Positions 7,928 through 61,780 of a DNA stretch of 64,000 nt are shown here, piece after piece. The stretch spans positions 69,008,001-69,072,000 of the forward strand of contig NC_086108.1 in NCBI RefSeq assembly GCF_963921235.1. Direction: 5' to 3'. Each line of letters opens with the position of its first letter. Positions within the stretch are counted from its first letter, which is position 1. The translations under genes were made by a program, and so were the position numbers. The notes beneath the pieces are model-generated. The model worked only from the letters and a program-made list of their open reading frames with translations. It did no database searches and was not told the origin of the DNA. The stretch is from Mobula hypostoma (lineage: Eukaryota).

Positions 7928-10900
7928 TTAGAACAGCTTGTACTGGAGCCTACCAGAGAGAACGCAATTCTAGATTTAGTGTTATGCAGTGAACCGGATT
8001 TGATCAGGGACCTCGAGGTAAAGGAGCCATTAGGAGGTAGTGACCATAATATGTTAAGTTTTAATCTGCAATTTGAGAGAGAGAAGGGAAACTCGGAAGT
8101 GTCAGTATTACAGTTGAACAAAGGGAACTATGGTGCTATGAGGGAGGAGCTGGCCAAAATTCAATGAAACAACACCCTAGCAGGGAAGACAGAGGAACAG
8201 CAATGGCAAGTGTATCTGGGAATAATACAGAAGGTGCAGGATCAGCTCGTTCCAAAGAGGAAGAAAGATCCTAAGGGGAATAAGGGGAGGGAGACTGTGG
8301 CTGACAAGGGAAGTAATGGACAGTATAAAAATAAAAGAGAAGAAGTATAACATAGCAAAGATGAGTGGGAAGCCGGAGGATTGGGAAACTTTTAAAGAGC
8401 AACAGAAGATAACTAAAAAGGCAATACGTGGAGAAAAAATGAGGTACGAAGGTAAACTAGCCAAGAATATAGAGGAGGATAGTAAAAGCTGCTTTAGGTA
8501 TGTGAAAAGGAAAAAAATAGTTAAGACCAAAATTGAGCCCTTGAAGACAGAAACGGGTGAATTTATTATGGGGAACAAGGAAATGGCAGACAAGTTGAAC
8601 AGGTACTTTGGATCTGTCTTCACTAGGGAAGACACAAACAATCTCCCAGATATAATAGTGGCCAAAGGACCTAGGGTAATGGATGAACTGAAGGAAATTT
8701 ATATTAGGCAGGAAATAGTGTTGGATAGACTGCTGCGACTGAAGGCTGATAAGTCCTCGGGACCTGATGGTCTGCATCCCAGGGTACTTAAGGAGGTGGC
8801 TTTCCAAATCGTGGATGCATTGGTAATCATTTTCCAATGTTCTATAGATTCAGGATCAGTTCCTGTGGATTGGAGGGTGGCTAATGTTGTCCCTCTCTTC
8901 AAGAAGGGAAGAAGAGATAAAACAGGGAATCATAGACCGGTTAGCCTGACGTCGGTGGTGGGAAAGATGCTGGAGTCAATTATAAAAGAAGAAATTATGA
9001 CATATCTGGATAGCAGTAACAGGATCGGTCCGAGCCAGCATGGATTTACGAAGGGGAAATCGTGCTTGACTAATCTTCTGGAATTTTTTTAAGGATGTAA
9101 CTATAAAAATTGACAAGGGAGAGCCAGTGGATGTAGTGTACCTGGACTTTCAGAAAGCCTTTGATAAAGTCCCACACAGGAGATTAGTGGGCAAAAGTTA
9201 GGGCACATGGTATTGGGGGCAGAGTACTGACATGGGTTGAAAATTGGCTGGCTGACAGAAAACAAAGTAGCGATTAATGGGTCCCTTTCCGAATGGCAGG
9301 CGGTGACCAGTGGGGTACCGCAGGGTTCAGTGCTAGGACCGCAGCTGTTTACAATATATATTAATGATTTAGCTGAGGGAATTAAAAGTAACATTAGCAA
9401 ATTTGCCGATGACACAAAGCTGGGTGGCAGTGTGAAATGTGAGGAGGATTTTATGAGAATGTAGGGTGACTTGGACAGGCTGGGTGAGTGGGCAGATGCA
9501 TGGCAGATGCAGTTTAATGTGGATAAATGTGAGGTTATCCACTTTGGTGGTAAGAACGGGAAGGCAGATTATTATCTAAATGGAGTCAAGTTAGGAAAAG
9601 GGGAAGTACAGCTAGATCTAGGTGTTCTTGTACATCAGTCACTGAAAGCAAGCATGCAAGTACAGCAGACTGTAAAGAAAGCTAATGGCATGCTGGCCTT
9701 CATAACAAGGGGAATTGAATACAAGAGCAAAGAGGTCCTTCTGATAAGATTAGGGTAGATTGGGAACAGGAATTGGGGCTTACCATTTCTGTGGATGATT
9801 GGGGGCAGATTTTACAATTAGTTAATACTTCTTCTATTTGTGTTAAACATTCCCTAATTCAATTTAAAGTGGTGCATAGAGCACATATGTCCAAAGATAA
9901 GTTAGCGCGTTTTTACTCGCATATTAATCCTTTCTGTGATAGATGTTCGGGGCAGATAGCCTCTTTAACTCATATGTTTTGGTCTTGCCCTACTTTGGAA
10001 ACTTTTTGGAGAGTATTTTCAATATTATTTCTAAGGTATTAAATATAGATATCTCTCCTCACCCTATTACTGCTATCTTTGGACTACCTAAAATTTCTAG
10101 TAATCTTTCCCCTTCAGCCCGTAGAATGATTGCATTTCTTACTTTAATGGCGAAAAGATGTATTTTACAACATTGGAAAGAGCTTGATGCTCCAACTACC
10201 TTTTTTTGGTTTTCTCAGACGATTTTATGTTTGAATCTGGAGAAAATTAGAAGTAACCTTTATGATTCTTCATTTAAATTTGAACAGATTTGGGGACCTT
10301 TTATTCGATATTTTCATTTAATGTAATATTTACCCTTCTTGTTTTTTCTTCACTGTTTTAATGGAGGTCGGGATTGAGGACGTGATTTTAAGTTTAACTC
10401 TGTTTGGTTTCAAGTTAGCCCATTGCTTTGCTTTGCTTTTAGTTAGTTGCACGGTGGGTTTTTTTTTGGGGTTTTTTTTTTCTTTTTTTTCCATTGATAT
10501 ATATAAAATCTAGTATACTATTATGTTATCTTGGTTTCTTATGCTTAAATTACATTGTTTGTAGTATTTTCTTTTTGGTATTGTTATCTTTTGGAATTTT
10601 ATTATACTTTAACATTGTATTAATGTTTATATGGCTTACCTTTTTTGTATACTTACTCAATAAAAAGATTTAAAAAGAAAGAAAGAGGTCCTTCTGCAGC
10701 TCTACAGGGCCCTGGTGAGACCACACCTGGAGTACTGTGTGCAGTTTTGGTCTCCAAATTTGAGGAAGGACATTCTTGCTATTGAGCGAGTGCAGCATAG
10801 GTTCACAAGGTTAATTCCCGGGATGGCGGGACTGTCAATTGTCGAAAGATTGGAGCAACTAGGCTTGTATACTCTGCAATTTAGAAGGCTGAGAGGGGAT

Positions 10901-11283
10901 CTTATTGAAACGTATAAGATTATTAAGGGATTGGACATGCTGGAGGCAGGAAGCATGTTCCCGCTGATGGGTGAGTCCAGAACCAGAGGCCACAGCTTAA
11001 GAATAAAGGGGAGGCCATTTAGAATGGAGTTGAGGAAAAGCTTTTCCACCCAGAGAGTGGTGGATGTATGGAATGCTCCGCCCCCGAAGGCTGTGGAGGC
11101 CAAGTCTCTGGATGCTTTCAAGAAAGAGATGGATAGAGCTCTTAAAGATAGCGGAATCAAAGGTTATGGGGATAAGGCAGGAACTGGATACTGATAGTGG
11201 ATGATCAGCCATGATCACAGTGAATGGCGGTGCTGGCTCTAAGGGCCAAATGGCCTACTCCTGCACCTATTGTCTGTTGTCTA
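7928..11283 (+). mobile_element. CR1 LINE, frameshifted, interrupted by an L1 fragment
   Basis: Endonuclease end (LGGSDHN), RT segments 8316-9092 and 9237-9743, C-terminus 10715-11194, and a 3' tail ctattgtctgttgtcta. Confidence 0.9.
9744..10681 (+). mobile_element. L1-clade LINE 3' fragment
   Basis: ORF2 C-terminal Cys motif (CDRC...ASLTHMFWSC), T-rich 3' UTR, AATAAA with an A-rich tail, and a 15-bp TSD AAAGAGGTCCTTCTG (9729-9743, 10682-10696). Confidence 0.88.
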
Positions 11284-14200
11284 AATGTACTAGCATATTC
11301 TTATACATGTCATTAAATCCTCTTAAAGTAAGGCAAGCACAGTATACCACCTACCTTCTCAACTGACCTGCAAGTCATCTTCAACATGTTTCCTAATCAC
11401 TCACAAATTAGAAAGATACTCAAAATTCCTTTTCTCAACCGATGAATTACTTCAGGTTCCATATTATACTCAATATGCTATATTATTGCCCATCCACTTA
11501 GCAATTTAACCACAGGAGAAGAAAGAAAGGGATGGGGGAAACACTAGAGAATACAACATTTGTGCGTAGTAGACTACTCAGGCAGAGTATCAAGTGCCGT
11601 TCTCTTAGCTTGTATTTGGCTGCACCATGCCTGTAGAGGAGGGCAGAGAAACTGGAATGGGAATAAGGGAACTTAAAATAGCTTGTAGCAGGGAGTTTAA
11701 CATGACCACTGTGGACCTAGCAAGGGTACTTGGCAAAAGCATTTCCAGTACTGGCACTTGGTCTTGCTGATGAAGAGGAGGACTCATAGGAGCACAGAAT
11801 GCAGCAGACGAAGTTAGAGAAGGACCATTTGGGTATATGCCTCACCCCTGGAAGGGCTATTTAAGTGGAGGCAAGGGAGGAGGTACACGGCAGGTGAGAT
11901 AGCAGGCATCGCTTCCAGTTGCAGGGGACAGCGCCTAGGGAAGAATGAGCCATGGAGAGTGGTCGCTGCTGAAAGCAGCAGCATAGGTGCCAGGGAAATC
12001 CAAAAGTTTGACTGATGAAGGTACATGCCTCTGAGTACAAAATTGGTGGCTGAAGGGATTGTGCACCTGGGTTGGCTTTAAGTTTCTGGATCACTGGAAG
12101 GTTTTTTTGGGAATGGGACCTGTATACACAGTGCAGGTGGCACTTTAACGAGAGTGGGACCAGCATCCTAGCTGGGAGATTTATTGTACAGTTGGGTTAG
12201 GTTTTTTAACCTTGTTAAGAGAGAAGGGGGCTTCAGTGGAGAGATAGTACTTTTCTTCCAGATGATTCTGAGACAAGTAGGCAGAACAAGCAAGTGAACT
12301 TCAAGAAATTTCAATGCCAAATTGCACACATTTAAATGCATGAGGTATAACCAGCAAAGTAGATGAACCCAAAGCTTTAAGTAACACAAGAGTCTACAAT
12401 ATTGTTCCCAGCACTGAGATAAAGAATAGAAGGACTGGGTATAACATATTCAGGCGAGACAGATGGTGTACGGGGAAGAGGCATTGTGTTGTTAGTCAAA
12501 GATTGCATTACTTCAGTATTGAGGGAGGATATCCTAGAAGGCTCCTCAAACAAGACCGCAATTAGAGATTAAAATCAAGAAGGGTCTCATCACCATTCTG
12601 GGGGCATATTACAGACCACCCAACAAGTCAACAAGAAGAGGAGGAACAAAAAGCTGCAATAAAAATAGGATTACTGTACTTGGGGGATTTCATTTTCCCA
12701 AATTTAACTAGGATTTCTTCAGTGCTAAAGGCTCAAGGTGCAGACTTTTTGAGGTGTGCCCCTAAGACCAAAGATGCAACGGGCATTACTATAGTTCATC
12801 TTGAGGAATAAAGCTGGTCAAGCAGAGAGAGTATCATTTTGGAGATAGAAGGCAAATCTCATTAACACAAGGGACAACTTGGGATTAGGAGCACATATTT
12901 GCAGATGAGACTACAACACATCTGCACAGTGGAAAACATTCATAGAAGAAATAGCAAGAGTTCAAGGTTAACATGTTCCAGTAAGGGTAAACACCAAGGA
13001 TAACAGGCTAAGGAACCCCGGATGCTCAGGAATATTGAGAGCTGGATAATAAAGGGAGAAAAGAGGTGATTTGACAAAAATAGAGAACTAATAATAGAGA
13101 AAGCCTGTTCTAAATAGAAAAGTGCATGGAGGCAATTAACAAAAAAAATTAGGAAGACCAAGTTGGGTCCAGAAAAAAATCAATAGCCAAATCCAAAGAT
13201 ATTTATTCTATTAGTATATTAAGGACTCTTAAAGAAAACAATGGCAATTATTTGTGGAACCAGTTGTAGGCGAGGTCTTAAATTAATATTTTTCAATTGG
13301 CATTCATAAAGAAAATTGACTTTGTAGTTGGTGACTTAAATGAAGTGTAGGTGAAAGTCCAGAGCCAGTCTCTGCAAATTAAGAGAAATACTCAACATCT
13401 TTGCAGGCTTAAAGATGGATAAATTCTCATAACCAATTGAGATTTACCCCTGACAACAGTAGGAGTCAAGAAAAGAAATTGCTGGGGCACTGGTTGAGAT
13501 TTTTCAATCTTTGCTGAATACATGCAAAGTACTAGATAAATAGAAAACAAATAGCATAGTCCCCTTTATTTAAAAAAAAGTGCAGAGGGAAAAGCACTGT
13601 AATTGTATACCTGCAAACCTAACAAGAGTAGGGAAGATTCTGAGGATGACAAATGCAAAGGCAGAAGCTAATCAGAGATATGCCTAACATGCAAATCCTG
13701 TCTGACCAATCTGAGTGAATATTGTGAAGAGGCAACAAATTTTATCAATATCTGTGTACTAAATGTGATGTACGTGGCTATCAGCCTTTGATAACATGCC
13801 ACACGTGGGACTGGTTCAAATGTTTAGGACCCAAGGATCCAGGGAAAATTACAAAATTGGAGACAGTGGGCAATAGAGACTACTGTGTTTGCGATTGGAT
13901 GTAGGTGGCATCAGTGCTGGAACCTTTGCTGTTTGTAATAGCTATGAATAACTTGAATGCAGATGTGGGATCACAAATGTGCAGATGACATGATGATTGG
14001 AGGAGTTTAGTGTAAGGATAGAGAGATAACAATGTGTCGTGAAATAGTCTGAAAAATGGCAAACAAAGTTTAGTCCAGATAAATGCAAGGTGATACGTTT
14101 TAGGAGCACTAACGAAGCTAGGACATACACTATGAATGGTAAAGTCTTAGAATGCATAGAGGAACAGTGGAGTACAAGTCCAGAGATACTTGAAAGTGGT

Positions 14201-52327: not shown

Positions 52328-52846
52328 ACACACATAAAAGTTGCTGGTGAACGCAGCAGGCCAGGCAGCATCTCTAGGAAGAGGTACGGTCAACGTTTCG
52401 GGCCGAGACCCTTCGTCAGGACTAACTGAAAGAAGAGCTAGTAAGAGATTTGAAAGTGGGAGGGGGAGGGGGAGATCCAAAATGATAGGAGAACACAGGA
52501 GGGGGAGGAATGGAGCCAAGAGCTGGACAGTTGATTGGCAAAAGGGATATGAGAGGATCATGGGTCAGGAGGCCTAGGGAGAAAGAAAAGGGGGACGTGG
52601 GAAGCCCAGAGGATGGGCAAAGCTCCTTCCCTCCCCCTCCTGTCTTCTCCTATCATTTTGGATCTCCCCCTCCCCCTCCCACTTTCAAATCTCTTACTAG
52701 CTCTTCTTTCAGTTAGTCCTGACGAAGGGTCTCGGCCCTAAACGTCGACCATACCTCTTCCTAGAGATGCTGCCTGGCCTGCTACGTTCACCAGCAACTT
52801 TAATGTGTGTTGCTTGAAATTCCAGCATCTGCAGATTTCCTCGTGT
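52328..52846. mobile_element. ~520-bp fold-back Penelope-derived element
   Basis: ~185-bp inverted arms (52328-52515, 52622-52810), each with a hammerhead-like core; imperfect TSD TACAGTAATGAC / TATAGCAATGAC. Confidence 0.85.
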
Positions 52847-54632
52847 ATAGCAATGACTGTTTGAGAAAGAAAATATGATAATCACAATACAAGCCTGGGT
52901 GTACCAATACCAGGACAGATTCAGCATGAGCAATGCCCTTCTGAAAAAGAATGTGCAATTTAGTTAATAAAATTTAACAAGTGCTAAGTTTTCTCAAGGA
53001 GTAGAATTTAGACAATAGATTAATGCATACATCGGTCACATGCGCAAGAGGCTGCCAGGAAATGTGATGGTGTGGAACCAAAGGCAGTAGTGGAATTAGT
53101 GGAAACGTGATACTCCCTGACATTAGGTTGTGGTGTGAGATAAGAATGCCAATGAAAAGCATACCTGCTATTACATTAAGAGAATGTTTTGTTCAGAGAT
53201 AGATATGTGGAATTGGCTATTTGTGTACCTGCCAGCGAGAGCTCCACACATTGACTTTGTTGTGGGAGAAAAATAAAGCATGGGAATGAGAGACAGGGCT
53301 GGAGGATGTCTATAGTGGAAGTAAGTCTATGAAGGCCACGGTGAAATGTTATCATTTGCTCTGACATACTTGGAAAGGTTTTGAAAAACATGTATAATTA
53401 TAGTTACTATCATTAATCTATATTTAATGGATGCATTGGTCTGTGTTAAATTTGGGGTTCATAACTGACCTTTCAAAACTTTTGTTTTTAAGGTTACTTA
53501 AACCGAAAGCAACACCCACGCACACGTGTAATTAATCATACATAAAGCCTCTCAGAAAAGTGATTAATTTCCATCCTGAGATTCATGATAATATCTGTAG
53601 TATATCCAAAATTGCTAAATATTGAGGCATATTATGTTAAGGTTGCAATGTATATTTAAATAGTTATTGTAGTTTTAGGTTTATTTGCATTTTAAGGGAA
53701 AACAGTACAGTATATTACTTGTGTAAGTGCCTTTAAAAATTGTGTGCTATGTGGCATGACTTCTGATACATTGTTGTTTTAGCGATTGAGTGCTGTTCAA
53801 CTTTAAAAAGAATGCTCAAGTAAAAGAAAAATATCTTTACTTATTTTGCTAAACAGCAATATGGACACTAATAATAGCAACTGCCAGCAAGTACCAATGG
53901 TGCATATTCATTCATGATTTCACTTTGGCTTTAATGGTACACTGTGGAGAAAGTCTATAGCATGTTTCAATATTAAGCTCAATATTAAAATGATTACTAT
54001 TAATTCAGGGTTTAGAGTAGACAGTAAATATGTTTTATGTAAAATATTAAAATCTGATCACAATCTTTGAGGAAAGTTTAAGAAGCAATTATTTAAATCA
54101 CTTTACAATTAGTTGATTACTTTTTGAAGTGTAGTTATTATTCTGAATTTGAAAACATTGGCGACCATTTTGCACATACTAAGTTCACAGTAGGCAGCCG
54201 TCAATCCCAGGGGATCATGGGTTTGTGCCTCTGGTGGACTGTGTCCTCTCCAGGGTGCAAGCCTGGGCAGGAAGATTTGAAGAACCGGCTGTTGCCCATG
54301 CAGCGGGTTCCCCCTCTCCACGTCACTGAGGTAGTCCAAGGGAAGGTCAAGTGCCGTTACAGCTTGGTACCTGTGGTAAACCATATATATATATGTTGTA
54401 ACTGGGTTACCTGTCTGGACTCGCCCCTCTGCTGACTGCCCCTATGGCTCCTCCCACAGAGCCCTGAATAAAGGCGATTGGGCCATGGCTCCTCCTCTCA
54501 GTCCAGGGGCAGACACTCAGCATGCTGGAGGTCACATTTTACTGCTAATAAAAACCTTTCAGTATTTAGTCTACTTCCAGTCTTTTGGAGTTATTGACGG
54601 TGCATCAATTTTATTAGCAGTAATTTTAAAGC

Positions 54633-55373
54633 ATGAAATGGTCTCTGAGACCTGACAAGTTAGACCTCGACCCGCAAACACCTGAAGCTGGAAACAGTTT
54701 CGAACTCTGGCTGGCCTGTTTTGAATCATACCTAGAGGCGGTTGAAGTGACTGAGTCCACAGTGAAGCGCAGAGTTCTCCTTTCCAGGGTCAGTCCACGA
54801 GTCTACTCGATGATCAGAGACCAGCCAAGCTACGACAGCGCGATGAGCGCCCTCAAAGGACAATACCTGTGGCCGGTAAACACCGTCTACGCGCGGCATT
54901 GCTTAGCGACACGGCACCAGCGGCCCAGGGAGTCGAGTGCTGAGTTTGTCCGGGCACTACAGACACTCGTGCAGACCTGCCCCTGCCAAGAGCTGACGGC
55001 AGAACAGCATGCGGAGATCCTAGTGAGAGACGCTTTCGTCATGGGGACCAGGTCAGTGTATGTGCGCCAGCGGCTGCTGGAAAAAGCTGACCTTACCTTA
55101 CGTTCGGTGATTGAACTGGCTGACACGCTGGAGGCCGCTCTGCACAACTCTGAGGCTCTCCAGGCACGCAATCCCCCGATGGCCTTGTGGGTGCCACAGA
55201 CCCCGCAACCCGCCGGCAAATCGACCTCGGCTGCTGCCAGTTGCGAGTCCGCAAAGTGCTACTTTTGCAGACTGGAGAAGCACCCCCAGAAACGCTGCCC
55301 GGCCCGACAAGCTACCTGCTCCAGCTGCAGAAAGAAGGGCCACTTCGCCAAGGTCCGTAAGTCCAAACCGTGA
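54633..55373 (+). pseudogene. Gypsy Gag with two zinc knuckles
   Basis: CYFCRLEKHPQKRC and CSSCRKKGHFAKVR (second knuckle lacks its final Cys). The TGA is followed in frame by the protease region. Confidence 0.85.
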
Positions 55374-58300
55374 TTGGGATTGAGCAGCACCAAGTGCGAG
55401 ACATGGGGGTTGCCATCTTGCCTGCCGCCATCTTCCCTGCACGCCGCCACCACATGTGAGACATGGGTGCGGCCATCTTGGTCGCCGCCACCTCACACCG
55501 CCTACGACCAACGGGTGCTCACGGGGCACCCCACTGCGCCGGACCAAGACCGCGACCCAACCCTGGCTTCCGTGACCCTCGACCAAAGCGCTCCCCACCA
55601 GATCACAAGGTCAATGATAGACATCCTGGTGGAGGGGCACAGGACAAGCTGCCTGTTTGACACAGGCAGCACAGAGAGTTTTATCCACCCGGACACGGTG
55701 CAGCATTGCGGACTCGTGATACGGCCGGTAAGTCAGAGGGTCACCATGGCTTCCAGGTCGCATACAACAGACATCCGGAGGGGTTGTGTAGTGATACTAG
55801 TGGTGCAGGGCACAGAATATCGAGACTTTACGTTACTGGTCATGCCTCAACTGTGTGCCCCTGTGCTAATGGGGCTCAACTTCCAGAGCCACCTGAAAAG
55901 CGTGACAATGGAGTATGATGGGCCCCTCCCACCAATTACTGTCGTAAATCCCCAGTTTTGTAGAGATATGTCACATACCCCGCTACTGACCACACACACA
56001 CACCGACCTGCACATCCCACCCAACACCATGCCAACAGCCGCACTACCGACACCACTTGCGGCCTCTCCACCCTCAAGATCCCTCCCCCACCGCTGTTTG
56101 CCAAACTGACCCCTGACTGTAAACCTGTGGCAACTAAAAGCAGGAGGTACAGCGCGGGGGACAGAGCTTTCATTAAGTCGGAGGTGCAGCGGCTGCTCAG
56201 GGAGGGGTCATTGAGACAAGCACAAGTCCTTGGAGGGCGCAGGTGGTCGTTGTTCGGAACGGGGAGAAAAATAGGATGGTCGTGGACTATAGCCAGACCA
56301 TCAATAGGTTCACGCTGCTCGACGCATACCCTCTACCCCACATTGCGGATATGGTCAATCAGATAGCATAGTACAAGACCTAAAATCCACTTACCATCAG
56401 CTGTCCATCCACCGGGAGAACCGCCCTTACACTGCCTTCGAGGCGGACGGCAGGCTTTATCACTTCCGGTGCGTCCCCTTTGGTGTCACGAATAGTGTAT
56501 CTGTCTTCCAGAGGGCGATGGACCGGATGGTGGACAAGTGCCAACTGAAGGCCATGTTCCCATATCTGGATAACATCACCACCTGCGGTCACGACTGGCA
56601 GGATCACGACAACAACCTCCAAAAATTCCTCCAAGCAGCCAAAGCTTTCAATTTCACCTATAACAAGGACAAGTGTGTGTTTGGAACCACCCAACTTGCT
56701 ATCCTTGGGTGTGTCGTGGAGAACGGAGTCATTGGCCCTGACCCCAACCGTATGCGCCTACTGTTGAACGCCCTCTTCCCAACATCCTCAGAGCCCTCAA
56801 GAGGTGCCTGGGCTTCTTTTCATATTACGCCCAATGGGTCTCTAACTACGCAGACAAGGCCCGCCCCCTGGTCAAGTCCACCACATTCTCCCTCTCAGCC
56901 GAGGCCCTCGCGGCCTTCAGCCGCATAAAAGGGGACAATGGAGTATGATGGGCCTCTCCCATCCCAGCAATGCATGCGGTGGATGAGGCCATTCCCTTCC
57001 AAGTAGAGATTGACGCCTCCGACTTCGCACTGGCTGCTACCCTCAACCAGGCAGGAAGACCAGTGGTGCTCTTCTCCCGTACCCTTCGAGGCCTTGAAAC
57101 TCGGCACTCCGCAGTGGAGAAAGAGGCCCAGGCCACAGTGGAAGCTATTAGGCACTGGAGGCACTATCTCGCCAGCAAAAGGTTCACCCTGCTAACTGAC
57201 CAGCGCTCAATCGCATTCATGTTTAATAATCAGCAGCGGAGCAAAATCAAAAATGATAAAATTCTGAGGTGGAGAATTGAACTCTCCACCTACAACTATG
57301 ACATCATGTACAGGCCTGGGAAGCTCAACAAGCCCTCTGATGCCCTATCCCGGGGAACGTGCGCCAGCGCGCAGATCGACCGGCTATACGCCCTACATGT
57401 AGATCTTTGCCACCCGGGAGTCACCCAGTTTTTCCACTTAGTGAAAGCCCGGAACCTGCCTTACTCCCTTGAGGAGATCAGGGCGATGACCAGGGACTGC
57501 CAAGTCTGCGCAGAGTGCAAACTGCACTTCTGCCGACCAGAAAAGGCACAACTCATCAAGGCCACCTGCCCCTTTGAGCAACTGAGTGTTGACTTTAAGG
57601 GCCCCCTTCCCTCCACCGACTGCAATGTGTACTTTCTGAACGTTATCGATGAGTACTCGCGGTTCCCCTTCGCCATCCCCTGCCCCGATACCACTACCAC
57701 GTCAGTTATAAAAGCCCTGCGCAAGCTCTTCACTCTGTTTGGATACCCATGCTATATCCACAGTGACAGAGGGTCCTCGTTTATGAGTGACGAGCTGCGC
57801 CAATATCTACTGGCTAGGGGAATTGCAACTAGCAGGACCACGAGCTATAATCCCCGGGGGAATGGACAGGTAGAGAAGGAGAATGGCACAGTGTGGAAAG
57901 CCACACTCTTAGCCCTCAGGTCAAAGGGACTGCCGGTCTCCCGCTGGCAGGAGGTCCTTCCCAAGGCACTCCACTCCATCTGCTCCCTGTTATGCACATC
58001 CACCAACGCCACCCCTCATGAGCGGCTCTTTTCTTTTCCCAGAAAGTTGACCACTGGGACCACCCTACCATCTTGGCTGACGTCCCCAGGGCTAGTGCTG
58101 CTCCGAAAACATGCGAGGTGCAATAAATACTCCCCGATCGTCGAGAGGGTTCACTTACTTCATGCGAACCCCCAGTATGCCTATGTGGTTTTACCTGATG
58201 GGCGGGGGGACACGATCTCCATCCGCGACCTGGCGCCCGCAGGAGCACCGGGCCCTTACCCTGAACACTCCATGGTGACTATTAACCCCGTATCCACCGA

Positions 58301-58523
58301 TATATATACCCACCAGACACTGCGCACTCCAAGCCCTACACAGACACCACACGACACTCCCATACCAGGCACGATGCACATGCACGAGGGATTAACAACG
58401 CCTAACGTGCTGGCACCTCAAGTCAGGCCGGGGCCAGCACAACCACTGTCACCGGTGCTACATAGATCACAGCGACGGACTCGACCGCCTGACAGACTTG
58501 ACCTGTATATATACTTGTTTTAA
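55374..58523 (+). pseudogene. Gypsy Pol (protease, RT, RNase H, integrase), frameshifted in RT
   Basis: LFDTGSTES protease; PFGV and YLDN RT; IDASD and TDQ RNase H; HHCC plus VDFKGP / HSDRG / NGQVEKEN integrase (56970-58523 is open). Confidence 0.9.
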
Positions 58524-60297
58524 ATATTGTCAGTCACTTCACCCCGCGGGACTCTTTTTTAAAAAAAGAGGGGTGAATGTGGTAAACCATATATATATGT
58601 TGTAACTGGGTTACCTGTCTGGACACGCCCCTCTGCTGACTGCCCTCTGTCCTCCCACAGACCTCTGAATAAAGGTGGTTGGGCCATGGCTCCTCTTCTC
58701 AGTCGAGGAGCAGACACTCAGCATGCTGGAGGTCACATTTTACTGCTAATAAAAGCCTTTCAGTATTTACTCTACTTCCAGTCTTTTTGAGTTATTGATG
58801 GTGCATCAGTACCAGTGTCATCACAGAGGTTGCCAGAGTGAAGTTGTAAACAACATCAAACTGCCTTAGGGACCCCGGCTCCGGATTTCTTCCTTGGGGT
58901 TTACTCCTGAAGCCTTTCCCATGAGTGGGTATGACCGCAAGGCAGCAGAGGTTTAGAATCAGAGTATTCCTTTTCCTGGGCAGGCTGTCGCCCAAGGCTG
59001 ACCAGCCCCACCTACACAAAGCAACTGATTTTGAGGCGCCTGTGGTCTGCCTTTGCCTCTTCTCTTGTCAGTAGAGACAGTTCCGTCGGGCCTAGTAGCT
59101 CAGCCATACGTGAAGGTCAAGAGTTGGACTTGGTTGTCAAAGGCTGTTAGAGATGCACGCCATTTGGAGCACTTGATAGGTAGTGGGAGCTTATCCCCAT
59201 TACCACCCCCCGCTATGACAACCATAGGAACCAAGTTCATACAGGTAACAAATACATAAAATGAGCAACATTTTTGCCAGGGTTGGTGGAGGAAAAGAAC
59301 TGACAGTATTTTTTTTAAGATGGGGAATTTCTCAAACCAACTGAACAGGAACATAAATTTAAAGAAGTGGCGATGCTTCTTGGTTTATTAAACTGCATTT
59401 GGTGCATTTAGAAAATCTTTATTACATGCTAACAGTGTTGCATATTCAAGCTAAGCACAGATTAGCTTGTTCTTGATTTCTTTGAGTTGCCTTGAAACAA
59501 CATTGCAAAGGGCATGCTGCTCATAAACTTCTTTCATGTGAAATGATCCAAGTTTGCAAATCATGACATGATGTTGGATTTACAGACTTTGTAGTCTGGA
59601 GAAATTGCTATCCTATCAGTAATCCCACTCTTTCAGGAGCATTCGAGAACAGGGGAAATTGCAAATGTCTTGCTAGTTGTGAGCCGGTCCAGCACCATTC
59701 TATCTGTTTACTAAAAAGAATTTTCATGGTTCAGGTCTCTGAAATTATTCCTTTGTCTCAAACTTGCAAAGTGGATGGAAAATGCTCATCCTTTTTTTTG
59801 CAATTAGAGAAATTCCGTGACCTAGGAATACAAGATTCTTTACCCAAAAAGATGAGAAACTTTAGAATTTGTTAAAATAGCACTCCAATAATCCAACACC
59901 CAAATACTTGGAGTGATATCAGTTCAATATCTGACCCACTCATAACTACAGTGTGTGAGCCAAAAGCCCAGGCTTCAAGCAAGATCTGCAGCTGGAGACA
60001 GGGTCCAGAGTCCATGTACATACCACATAACCTCTGGGTTCACCAGAAAATTTATCAAACCACAGAGTGATGTGAAAAAAATAATGAAAATTAAGCGTGT
60101 TTGGGTATTATTTTAAAAGTAACTTCCAATAATCTCTGCTAGTATGGAACCACAAGTCTCAAGTATGCCGATTTTTTGAGATTTTACTGTATTAGAATGA
60201 GAAGTTGAAACAAAAGGATTTACAGTAAATGAGCAAAGAGGAAACTCGAATGGAGCATGAATATAATCATAGAATATTGGGCAGAAGGCCTGTTTTA

Positions 60298-60900: not shown

Positions 60901-61387
60901 TTAAGCCCATGTGGTTTTGGTGCCATATTGCCTCAGCGGTCCCCTAATGGCCTGAGTTTCTGAAATGCAGTCTCTAAAGTTTTGCATAGTGAGTAGATGG
61001 ACAAGAAAATTAGTTTAAAAGAGCTTGTAGCAGTTAAGGCATTGGTAAATTGTTAAAAATGTGGAGGAACAGTAATTAGTTGTTCATTTTTGTATCATTT
61101 GTTCAGTTATGTGAGTTAAAAAATAAAATGTACAGTTGTTACACAGTGTACGCCTGCTAATTGTACTAGTGTTAATAGATAAGCAGCAGACAGAAGTCCA
61201 ATTGGCTAGATTCCACTAGAATAAACATAGCTTGTACAAAGCAAACAAAGTCCACAAAATATCCCATCAATAGAGAGCTATAATGTTTGAAAAGACTGTT
61301 AGAACTGTTCCATTCTTCCAGAAACTTGGACTTATCCTACTTTCATTGGGAAAATATATTTAATTTATAGTTGGGTTGTTATAGCTG

Positions 61388-61780
61388 GAGGTGGTAGTGC
61401 AGATAAGTTCCCACTATCTATTAAATGCTCCCATTGGCGTGTGCCTCAAATAGCCTCTAACAACCAAGTCCTGGCCTTCACATGCAGCTTAGCAACTAAG
61501 CTTGGTGGAATAGTTTCTACTGAGAGGAGAAGGGGCAAAGGCAGTTATATTGGCACCTTAAAACCAGTTGCTTCAGGCGGATGGGGCTTGTCAGCTGTGG
61601 TTGGCAGCTCATCTGGGAGAAGATGATATCAAACCTCCATTACCTTGCAGATATACCTAATCAAGGGAAAGGCTTCGGGAGTAAATCCTGAGGAACTATC
61701 CGGAAATGGAGTCCCGAAGGCAGTCCTACGTTGAGTTCAATGCTGACTCGCAACTCCTGCAATGCCACTAGTATCAGTCC
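61388..61780 (+). mobile_element. 5' part of the same non-coding retroposon family as 58814-59220
   Basis: Colinear similarity (ataagttcccacta...acaaccaagtcc...ctactga...gcaaaggcag...aaaggcttcgggagtaaa). Confidence 0.6.

Follow-up and report, generated by a model that had tools for sequence, protein, structure and literature searches.

How can a Ty3/Gypsy LTR retrotransposon start reverse transcription when its 5' LTR is not followed by a tRNA-type primer-binding site (PBS)? The question is raised by a decayed 4.4-kb copy at 54372-58808 of the window, by which we mean the whole 64,000-nucleotide stretch of Mobula hypostoma DNA that was analysed. A 5-bp target duplication (GTACC) and TG...CA termini delimit both LTRs, and the Pfam domain order, protease-RT-RNase H-integrase, is that of Ty3/Gypsy elements. 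The features referred to throughout are as follows.

54367..54371, + strand: left target-site duplication GTACC (sequence)
54372..54607, + strand: 5' LTR, 236 bp, TG...CA (blastn, 92% identity to the 3' LTR)
54383..54394, + strand: (AT)n run close to the LTR start (sequence)
54467..54472, + strand: upstream AATAAA, present in both LTRs (sequence)
54539..54553, + strand: putative self-primer, a 15-mer that complements the PBS (sequence, covariation)
54554..54601, + strand: stem starting directly 3' of the primer (folds; ACC at 54554-54556 pairs with GGT at 54599-54601)
54608..54608, + strand: one-base spacer (A) between the LTR CA and the PBS (sequence)
54609..54623, + strand: putative non-tRNA PBS (sequence)
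54633..55373, + strand: gag, with two CCHC-type knuckles, ending at the in-frame stop 55371-55373
55374..58523, + strand: pol, with protease, RT (YLDN), RNase H and integrase (Pfam)
58561..58577, + strand: polypurine tract (sequence; similar tracts in relatives)
58578..58808, + strand: 3' LTR, with a second copy of the 15-mer at 58740-58754 (sequence)
58809..58813, + strand: right target-site duplication GTACC (sequence)

The window copy is dead and serves only as an example of its kind. Intact relatives have a single gag-pol frame, whereas here gag ends at an in-frame stop; the last Cys of the second gag knuckle is altered, and the pol frame shifts three times relative to an intact relative, near 56200, 56377 and 56760. 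A 35-base piece of the protease-RT linker (55897-55931) is repeated, 89% identical, between RT and RNase H at 56927-56961, and is probably a template-switch insertion in this copy. The nearest named proteins are from rays (Mobula, 90%; Hypanus, 76-85%), and further named matches (about 46-66%) belong to sharks, cnidarians, molluscs, arthropods, echinoderms and flatworms. Elsewhere the window consists largely of LINE remnants, to judge from ORF translations. It also holds an inverted repeat at 52328-52810 (189-base arms, 96% complementary, 105 bases between them), which could be MITE-like or an inverted SINE pair, and a repeat of about 330 bases at 58890-59223 that has an inverted copy at 61374-61695, about 75% alike, and similar sequence at 54249-54349. 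The likeness at 54249-54349, together with loose contig ends, suggests that a copy of some common repeat may have been the element's insertion site.

The initial annotation had pointed out that no TGG follows the LTR end at 54607 and that positions 54609-54623 are the exact reverse complement of 54539-54553, a 15-mer that contains AATAAA and is unaltered in the 3' LTR. We confirmed each of these observations, placed the hexamer at 54547-54552 and a single A (54608) before the complement, and found the 15-mer nowhere else in the window beyond its two LTR copies. Its identity in both LTRs is expected and uninformative by itself, because the LTR pair has diverged little (13 substitutions over 231 aligned bases, K2P 0.059). 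In local folds the stem dominates (z -3.5), with AATAAA buried in it, and it persists when the whole LTR is folded. A search of Rfam with 54300-54750 gave no match up to an E value of 5, and ARAGORN predicted no tRNA in the 64-kb window. An A>C variant at 54616, within the PBS, appears in two contigs of run X1 and one of run X3, and a loose LTR end in run X3 carries the matching G, all in unphased contigs.

In favour of a chance complement, the stretch has a high AT content, and among 2544 control 25-mers taken across the window 7 have a complement of at least 15 bases in the preceding 236 bases. The relatives used to assess it are 79 loci from one metagenome scan; IMG/VR yielded no relatives and, with a generic RT motif, no outgroup, and matches in a PDB search were to Ty3, foamy virus and other retroviral proteins, none of which could serve as a reference. 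Self-comparison showed direct repeats flanking pol in 22 of the 79 loci. Junction anchors were chosen by eye in 26 loci and the window and collapsed to 19 families, whose RNase H-integrase (RH-IN) identity has a median of 56% and a range of 42-93%; the tree drawn covers clade members only. The registers were selected for best pairing and the families are related (L001, L003 and L004 at 86-93% RH-IN identity), which inflates the pairing statistics below somewhat. The 46 loci without a junction stand outside all pairing counts; L032 has a junction whose partner would fall off the contig, and the LTR end of L016 is not placeable. No TGG occurs at the PBS site of any of the 27 junctions. As a single control, the unrelated LTR element (minus strand) in which L022 sits shows a TGG-type PBS, with TGG at the LTR end, and an LTR complement of only 6 bases. 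L056 adjoins a Gypsy-like element with a YIDD RT at 9015-13188 (minus strand).

Across families the complement recurs at the same position with other letters. At duplex positions 5-11, counting the 5' LTR only, 128 of 133 positions in the 19 families are paired; the cross-family expectation is 64.4, and 128 was reached in none of the 100,000 family shuffles (best shuffle, 97). A blind scan of 507,337 bases from the 79 loci for perfect inverted repeats (at least 11 bp, loop of 15-100 bases) found 68. In 25 of these the right arm is preceded by CA and one further base; all 25 lie at the LTR-PBS-gag junction, with the gag starts of L001 and L029 taken from a separate analysis. The scan added five previously unused loci, four of them new families (L076 duplicates L074), for a total of 23. 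Over positions 1-11 in these 23 families, with the 3' LTR used for L043 and L052 because their 5' LTRs are decayed, 249 of 253 pairs are Watson-Crick, two are G-U and two are mismatches, both in L047. Given this recurrence in 22 other families, the shuffles and the blind scan refute a chance complement, which can be practically dismissed.

The same data bear on whether a host tRNA half or other host RNA does the priming, with the LTR match being secondary. Half-tRNA primers are known in Ty1/copia lineages, according to the accessible parts of PMC6317226. Against such a primer stand the absence of an Rfam match and the diversity of the site: there are 18 distinct first 11-mers in the 19 families, each following its own LTR down to single changes between close relatives. 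Such compensatory changes, which the initial annotation had proposed to look for among family members, are indeed found singly when L009 is compared with L011, L013, L014 and L058, and L003 with L004. We regard a host RNA primer as very unlikely.

While letters vary, geometry is conserved. The duplex begins one base after the CA in 22 of 23 families, and in none of them (0/23) does the spacer base form a Watson-Crick pair with the base that follows the partner. Tabulated loop lengths lie between 21 and 87 bases. In L048, where at 147-246 a tandem pair of PBSs stands 56 bases apart, each preceded by CA plus one base, the loop to the nearer PBS is 31 bases. Duplex position 10 is G in 21 of 23 families and position 11 is A in 16; the shortest duplexes, of 11 bp (L036, L048, L074), all begin at this same AG. 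In the window the conserved 11-base core is 54543-54553, with its position-10 G at 54544, and that G keeps its distance to the duplex end even here, where AATAAA lies one base further in. Positions 12-15 are paired in 59 of 76 cases against 29.7 expected, with mismatches at position 14 in L005 and L056, and pairing beyond position 15 is not above chance. The partner is directly followed by RCC in 19 of 23 families, usually opening a stem closed by GGY, as at 54554-54601; a shuffle test of this RCC/GGY stem is modest (17/23 against a mean of 11.2; the highest of 300 shuffles also gave 17). G-U at the outer pair of this neighbouring stem (7/19) contrasts with its near absence in the primer duplex, a weak comparison given that G-U is favoured at terminal pairs.

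These results bear on the other purpose that the initial annotation had raised, a hairpin that masks the poly(A) signal in the 5' LTR. In that case the hairpin would mainly hide AATAAA or cover the gag start region, and something else would prime. Fourteen of the 23 families have AATAAA or ATTAAA within the last 7 bases of the paired stretch, the window fold buries its hexamer, and in L006 and L019 the duplex extends to the A of the gag ATG, all of which would suit masking. The nine families without a hexamer in the paired stretch do not fit it as a main purpose (two of them carry the hexamer in the unpaired loop), and it is families such as L036, L041 and L074 that already weaken it. Nor does masking require a fixed one-base spacer or near-zero G-U, and it would leave the element without a primer site. 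We therefore consider masking quite unlikely as the main function, though it may be a side benefit in the window family. Taken together, the CA-plus-one spacer (22/23), the 11-bp minimum and the partial presence of the hexamer (14/23) mean that the duplex geometry fits priming better than poly(A) masking. As a separate observation, the duplex reaches or adjoins the gag ATG in L006, L019, L022 and L009, where it may double as a translation or packaging switch.

The best reading is that these elements prime reverse transcription with their own RNA in a Tf1-like manner, which we think probable; that the primer is self-derived in some form is highly probable. The proposal of the initial annotation, self-priming in an element without a chromodomain, holds as a signature (compensated pairing in 23 families, fixed spacing, no chromodomain found), and the priming itself is the interpretation we place on it. 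Within the complete transcript, the part of the 5' LTR that ends at 54553 would pair with the PBS at 54609-54623, and by analogy with Tf1 the element's RNase H would cut at the duplex end, after 54553, so that a 3'-OH would lie a single base off the LTR edge. From there reverse transcriptase would copy the spacer, U5 and a short R back to the cut, and the strong-stop DNA would transfer to the RNA 3' end, which would have to extend past the same motif. In the window family, AATAAA would form the last part of the primer, with its 5' copy sequestered in the duplex; because AATAAA ends the primer, the 3' copy could direct polyadenylation and keep R short. A single motif might then fix both where priming starts (at the 5' end) and how long R is (at the 3' end), and the hexamer at 54547-54552, not that at 54467-54472, is the predicted poly(A) signal in the 3' LTR. 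No poly(A) site was apparent at the contig ends of 19 loci.

The position of the duplex accords with this scheme. Because the linear DNA ends where the 3' end of the primer places it, priming needs a duplex whose distance to the LTR edge does not vary; what is conserved is that distance, while letters and loop length are free. From general retroelement replication, plus-strand synthesis over the primer would be expected to rewrite the PBS in each cycle, and such templated rewriting would explain near-perfect pairing with varying letters and near-zero G-U. Cut, enzyme, transcript ends and templated rewriting are all inferred.

A self-derived primer might also be supplied by the 3' LTR copy, or in trans by a second RNA, and not by a fold-back of the 5' end; its source would be a trimmed genome 3' end, a co-packaged partner or a short LTR transcript. 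The same stretch is present in the 3' LTR, where pairing past position 11 is available irrespective of the start site, and the RNA 3' end would lie just beyond the poly(A) hexamer. One locus argues otherwise: the LTRs of L007 are both mismatched at position 2, with an unchanged PBS, the pattern expected if daughter LTRs took the stretch from the parent's 3' LTR, and a 5' primer avoids having to prime with the mismatched copy. (In L011 the position-2 mismatch is in the PBS; mismatches so close to the 3' end of the primer, in L007 and L011 alike, count against self-priming.) The modelled cis fold in the window is also very stable, with a mean duplex pair probability of 0.97. We judge a primer from these other sources unlikely and return to the fold-back of the transcript's own 5' end.

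For such a fold-back primer, the initial annotation had predicted a transcript 5' end at, or processed to, about 54539. This is uncertain, as the conserved core comprises 11 bases and pairing is above chance to about position 15. The primer could be either an 11-base capped 5' end, starting at 54543, or part of a longer leader cut internally. The AG of the core resembles an initiator, which favours the 11-base capped primer; the pairing at positions 12-15, which a strict 11-base 5' end leaves unexplained, and the L047 family described below favour the longer leader. Inspection of 19 families by eye showed no TATA box some 30 bases upstream of duplex position 11. In the window, the (AT)n run at 54383-54394 is TATA-like and, by inference only, a candidate upstream promoter element.

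The exceptional family, L047 (PBS at about 150-170), has only 9 bases paired in its unspliced form and a spacer of 3 bases. The 9-base stretch directly follows a pyrimidine tract and CAG, which is acceptor-like, just before AATAAA, and a donor-like site, AG/GTAA, lies upstream in the LTR. Joining the two yields 13 perfect pairs, and among joins tried at 18 GT sites the next best gave 9 and 8. The L047 primer is thus a candidate for one that arises only across a putative splice junction within the LTR, in one family and one broken contig with an LTR piece at its 3' end. This reading, if right, would mean that the pairing acts on RNA, and that in L047 host splicing licenses replication. The LTRs of L029 and L016 also have an acceptor-like pyrimidine tract plus CAG, 14-20 bases upstream of the primer core, and that of L029 has a CTAAT branch-like motif; these may mark introns, trans-splice sites or plain U-rich elements. 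In its fullest form, our proposal is of a large animal Gypsy clade outside the chromoviruses with self-priming of its own origin, whose primer ends in a poly(A) hexamer and is cut from a longer leader, and is made by splicing in at least one family (L047); as a whole, this remains tentative and rather doubtful.

The mechanism is a known one; the clade and the design are apparently unreported. In the accessible parts of the literature consulted, self-priming among Ty3/Gypsy elements is a mark of Tf1/sushi chromoviruses, and our search, which left out most subscription papers and Repbase reports, found no report of it in a non-chromovirus animal Gypsy clade. The supplement of PMC13524379, to judge by the parts available, contains a table of PBS calls in Gypsy elements of sponges and echinoderms and may list elements of this kind as lacking a PBS. 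If a second, chromodomain-free clade does self-prime, tRNA-free priming would be far commoner in animals than recorded, and PBS-based annotation tools would miss such elements. It would bear on the order of origin, since hairpin priming before tRNA priming has been proposed (in the accessible part of PMC3601003), and such elements would offer no tRNA site for host 3' tRNA fragments to silence (a process described in the accessible part of PMC7472051). The model is readily testable in compact, 4-kb, single-frame relatives, since the model gives the cut site, the spacer and the poly(A) site with single-base precision.

Which clade is this? As the initial annotation had supposed, no chromodomain is visible: PF00385 (chromodomain) is not among the domains precomputed for the 120 long relatives that were listed, and the Chromo family at E 0.1 matched none of 15 relatives nor the window's last 140 residues. 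GP[YF] is likewise absent from the last 200 residues of all 120 relatives, in which CCHC arrays number two in 98, one in 14 and none in 8. The RT active site is YxDN in 89 of the 120, and YLDN in the window (56563-56574), versus YxDD. Lacking a chromodomain and GPY/F and having mostly two CCHC knuckles, the clade is not a typical Tf1/sushi chromovirus. It is these features, rather than a tree, that suggest an independent origin.

The clade may be Mag-related, Cigr-1 or a MolGy/PolGy clade. Mag A, B and C elements have TGG-type tRNA sites. Two Gag CCHC arrays occur in the Mag and Micropia/Mdg3 lineages, whereas chromoviruses usually have one (PMC2577118, in part); this likeness, common to both lineages, is not diagnostic. 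The term PBS is absent from the accessible main text of the Cigr-1, MolGy and PolGy papers (PMC6238403, PMC8556966). The CsRn1 clade, described in the available part of PMC2582038 as having a tRNA-Trp PBS, a CHCC Gag motif and a 4-bp duplication, was rejected, as the window element has no TGG, CCHC knuckles and a 5-bp duplication; PwRn1 was rejected as a clade name because, in the sources available in part, it equals CsRn1 and has the tRNA-Trp site.

Other elements without a tRNA PBS have been described: the fungal copia element GalEa, with a "conserved hairpin site", Dictyostelium Skipper, with a polypyrimidine site, and bivalve TRIMs (PMC5445492, PMC5006619 and PMC6934838, each in part). According to the accessible portions of these papers, the authors found no LTR complement in GalEa or Skipper and proposed no clear mechanism for the TRIMs, whereas an LTR complement is the defining mark of the window clade. 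In plants, self-priming has been predicted from sequence for Tcn1 (gypsy) and TAR, Houba and Osr-1 (copia), in the accessible part of PMC6317226. TAR indicates that self-priming can also evolve in elements that are not chromoviruses. Tcn1 is a plant chromovirus and TAR a plant Ty1/copia element, whereas the named matches of the window clade are all from animals.

The closest likeness is to the Tf1/sushi group, comprising Tf1 and Tf2 of Schizosaccharomyces pombe, Tj1, Tosmo and Tcry1, which also have no tRNA site (PMC7175516, PMC4600332, bioRxiv 10.1101/2022.12.06.519325, in their accessible parts). There, too, the PBS beside the 5' LTR complements a stretch of the LTR, and the 11-base core in our families is as in Tf1, whose primer consists of the RNA's first 11 bases, released by an RNase H cut (PMC7175516, in part). 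In the available part of bioRxiv 10.1101/2022.12.06.519325, flanking duplexes in Tf1 form a three-duplex "pretzel" around the PBS. In a crude test for such flanking duplexes across the window clade, counts were close to those in family shuffles (150 vs 146.7 and 101 vs 105.6), with a 12-pair, G-U-rich candidate in the window alone. Thus, while Tf1/sushi elements carry a chromodomain and, as described in these sources, the pretzel, we found neither in the window clade, which further differs in having no canonical GPY/F, two CCHC knuckles, a mostly YxDN RT and a primer that often ends in the poly(A) hexamer. Finally, priming has been shown experimentally for Tf1, whereas the window clade is known from sequence alone; what the two have in common is a PBS complementary to their own LTR.
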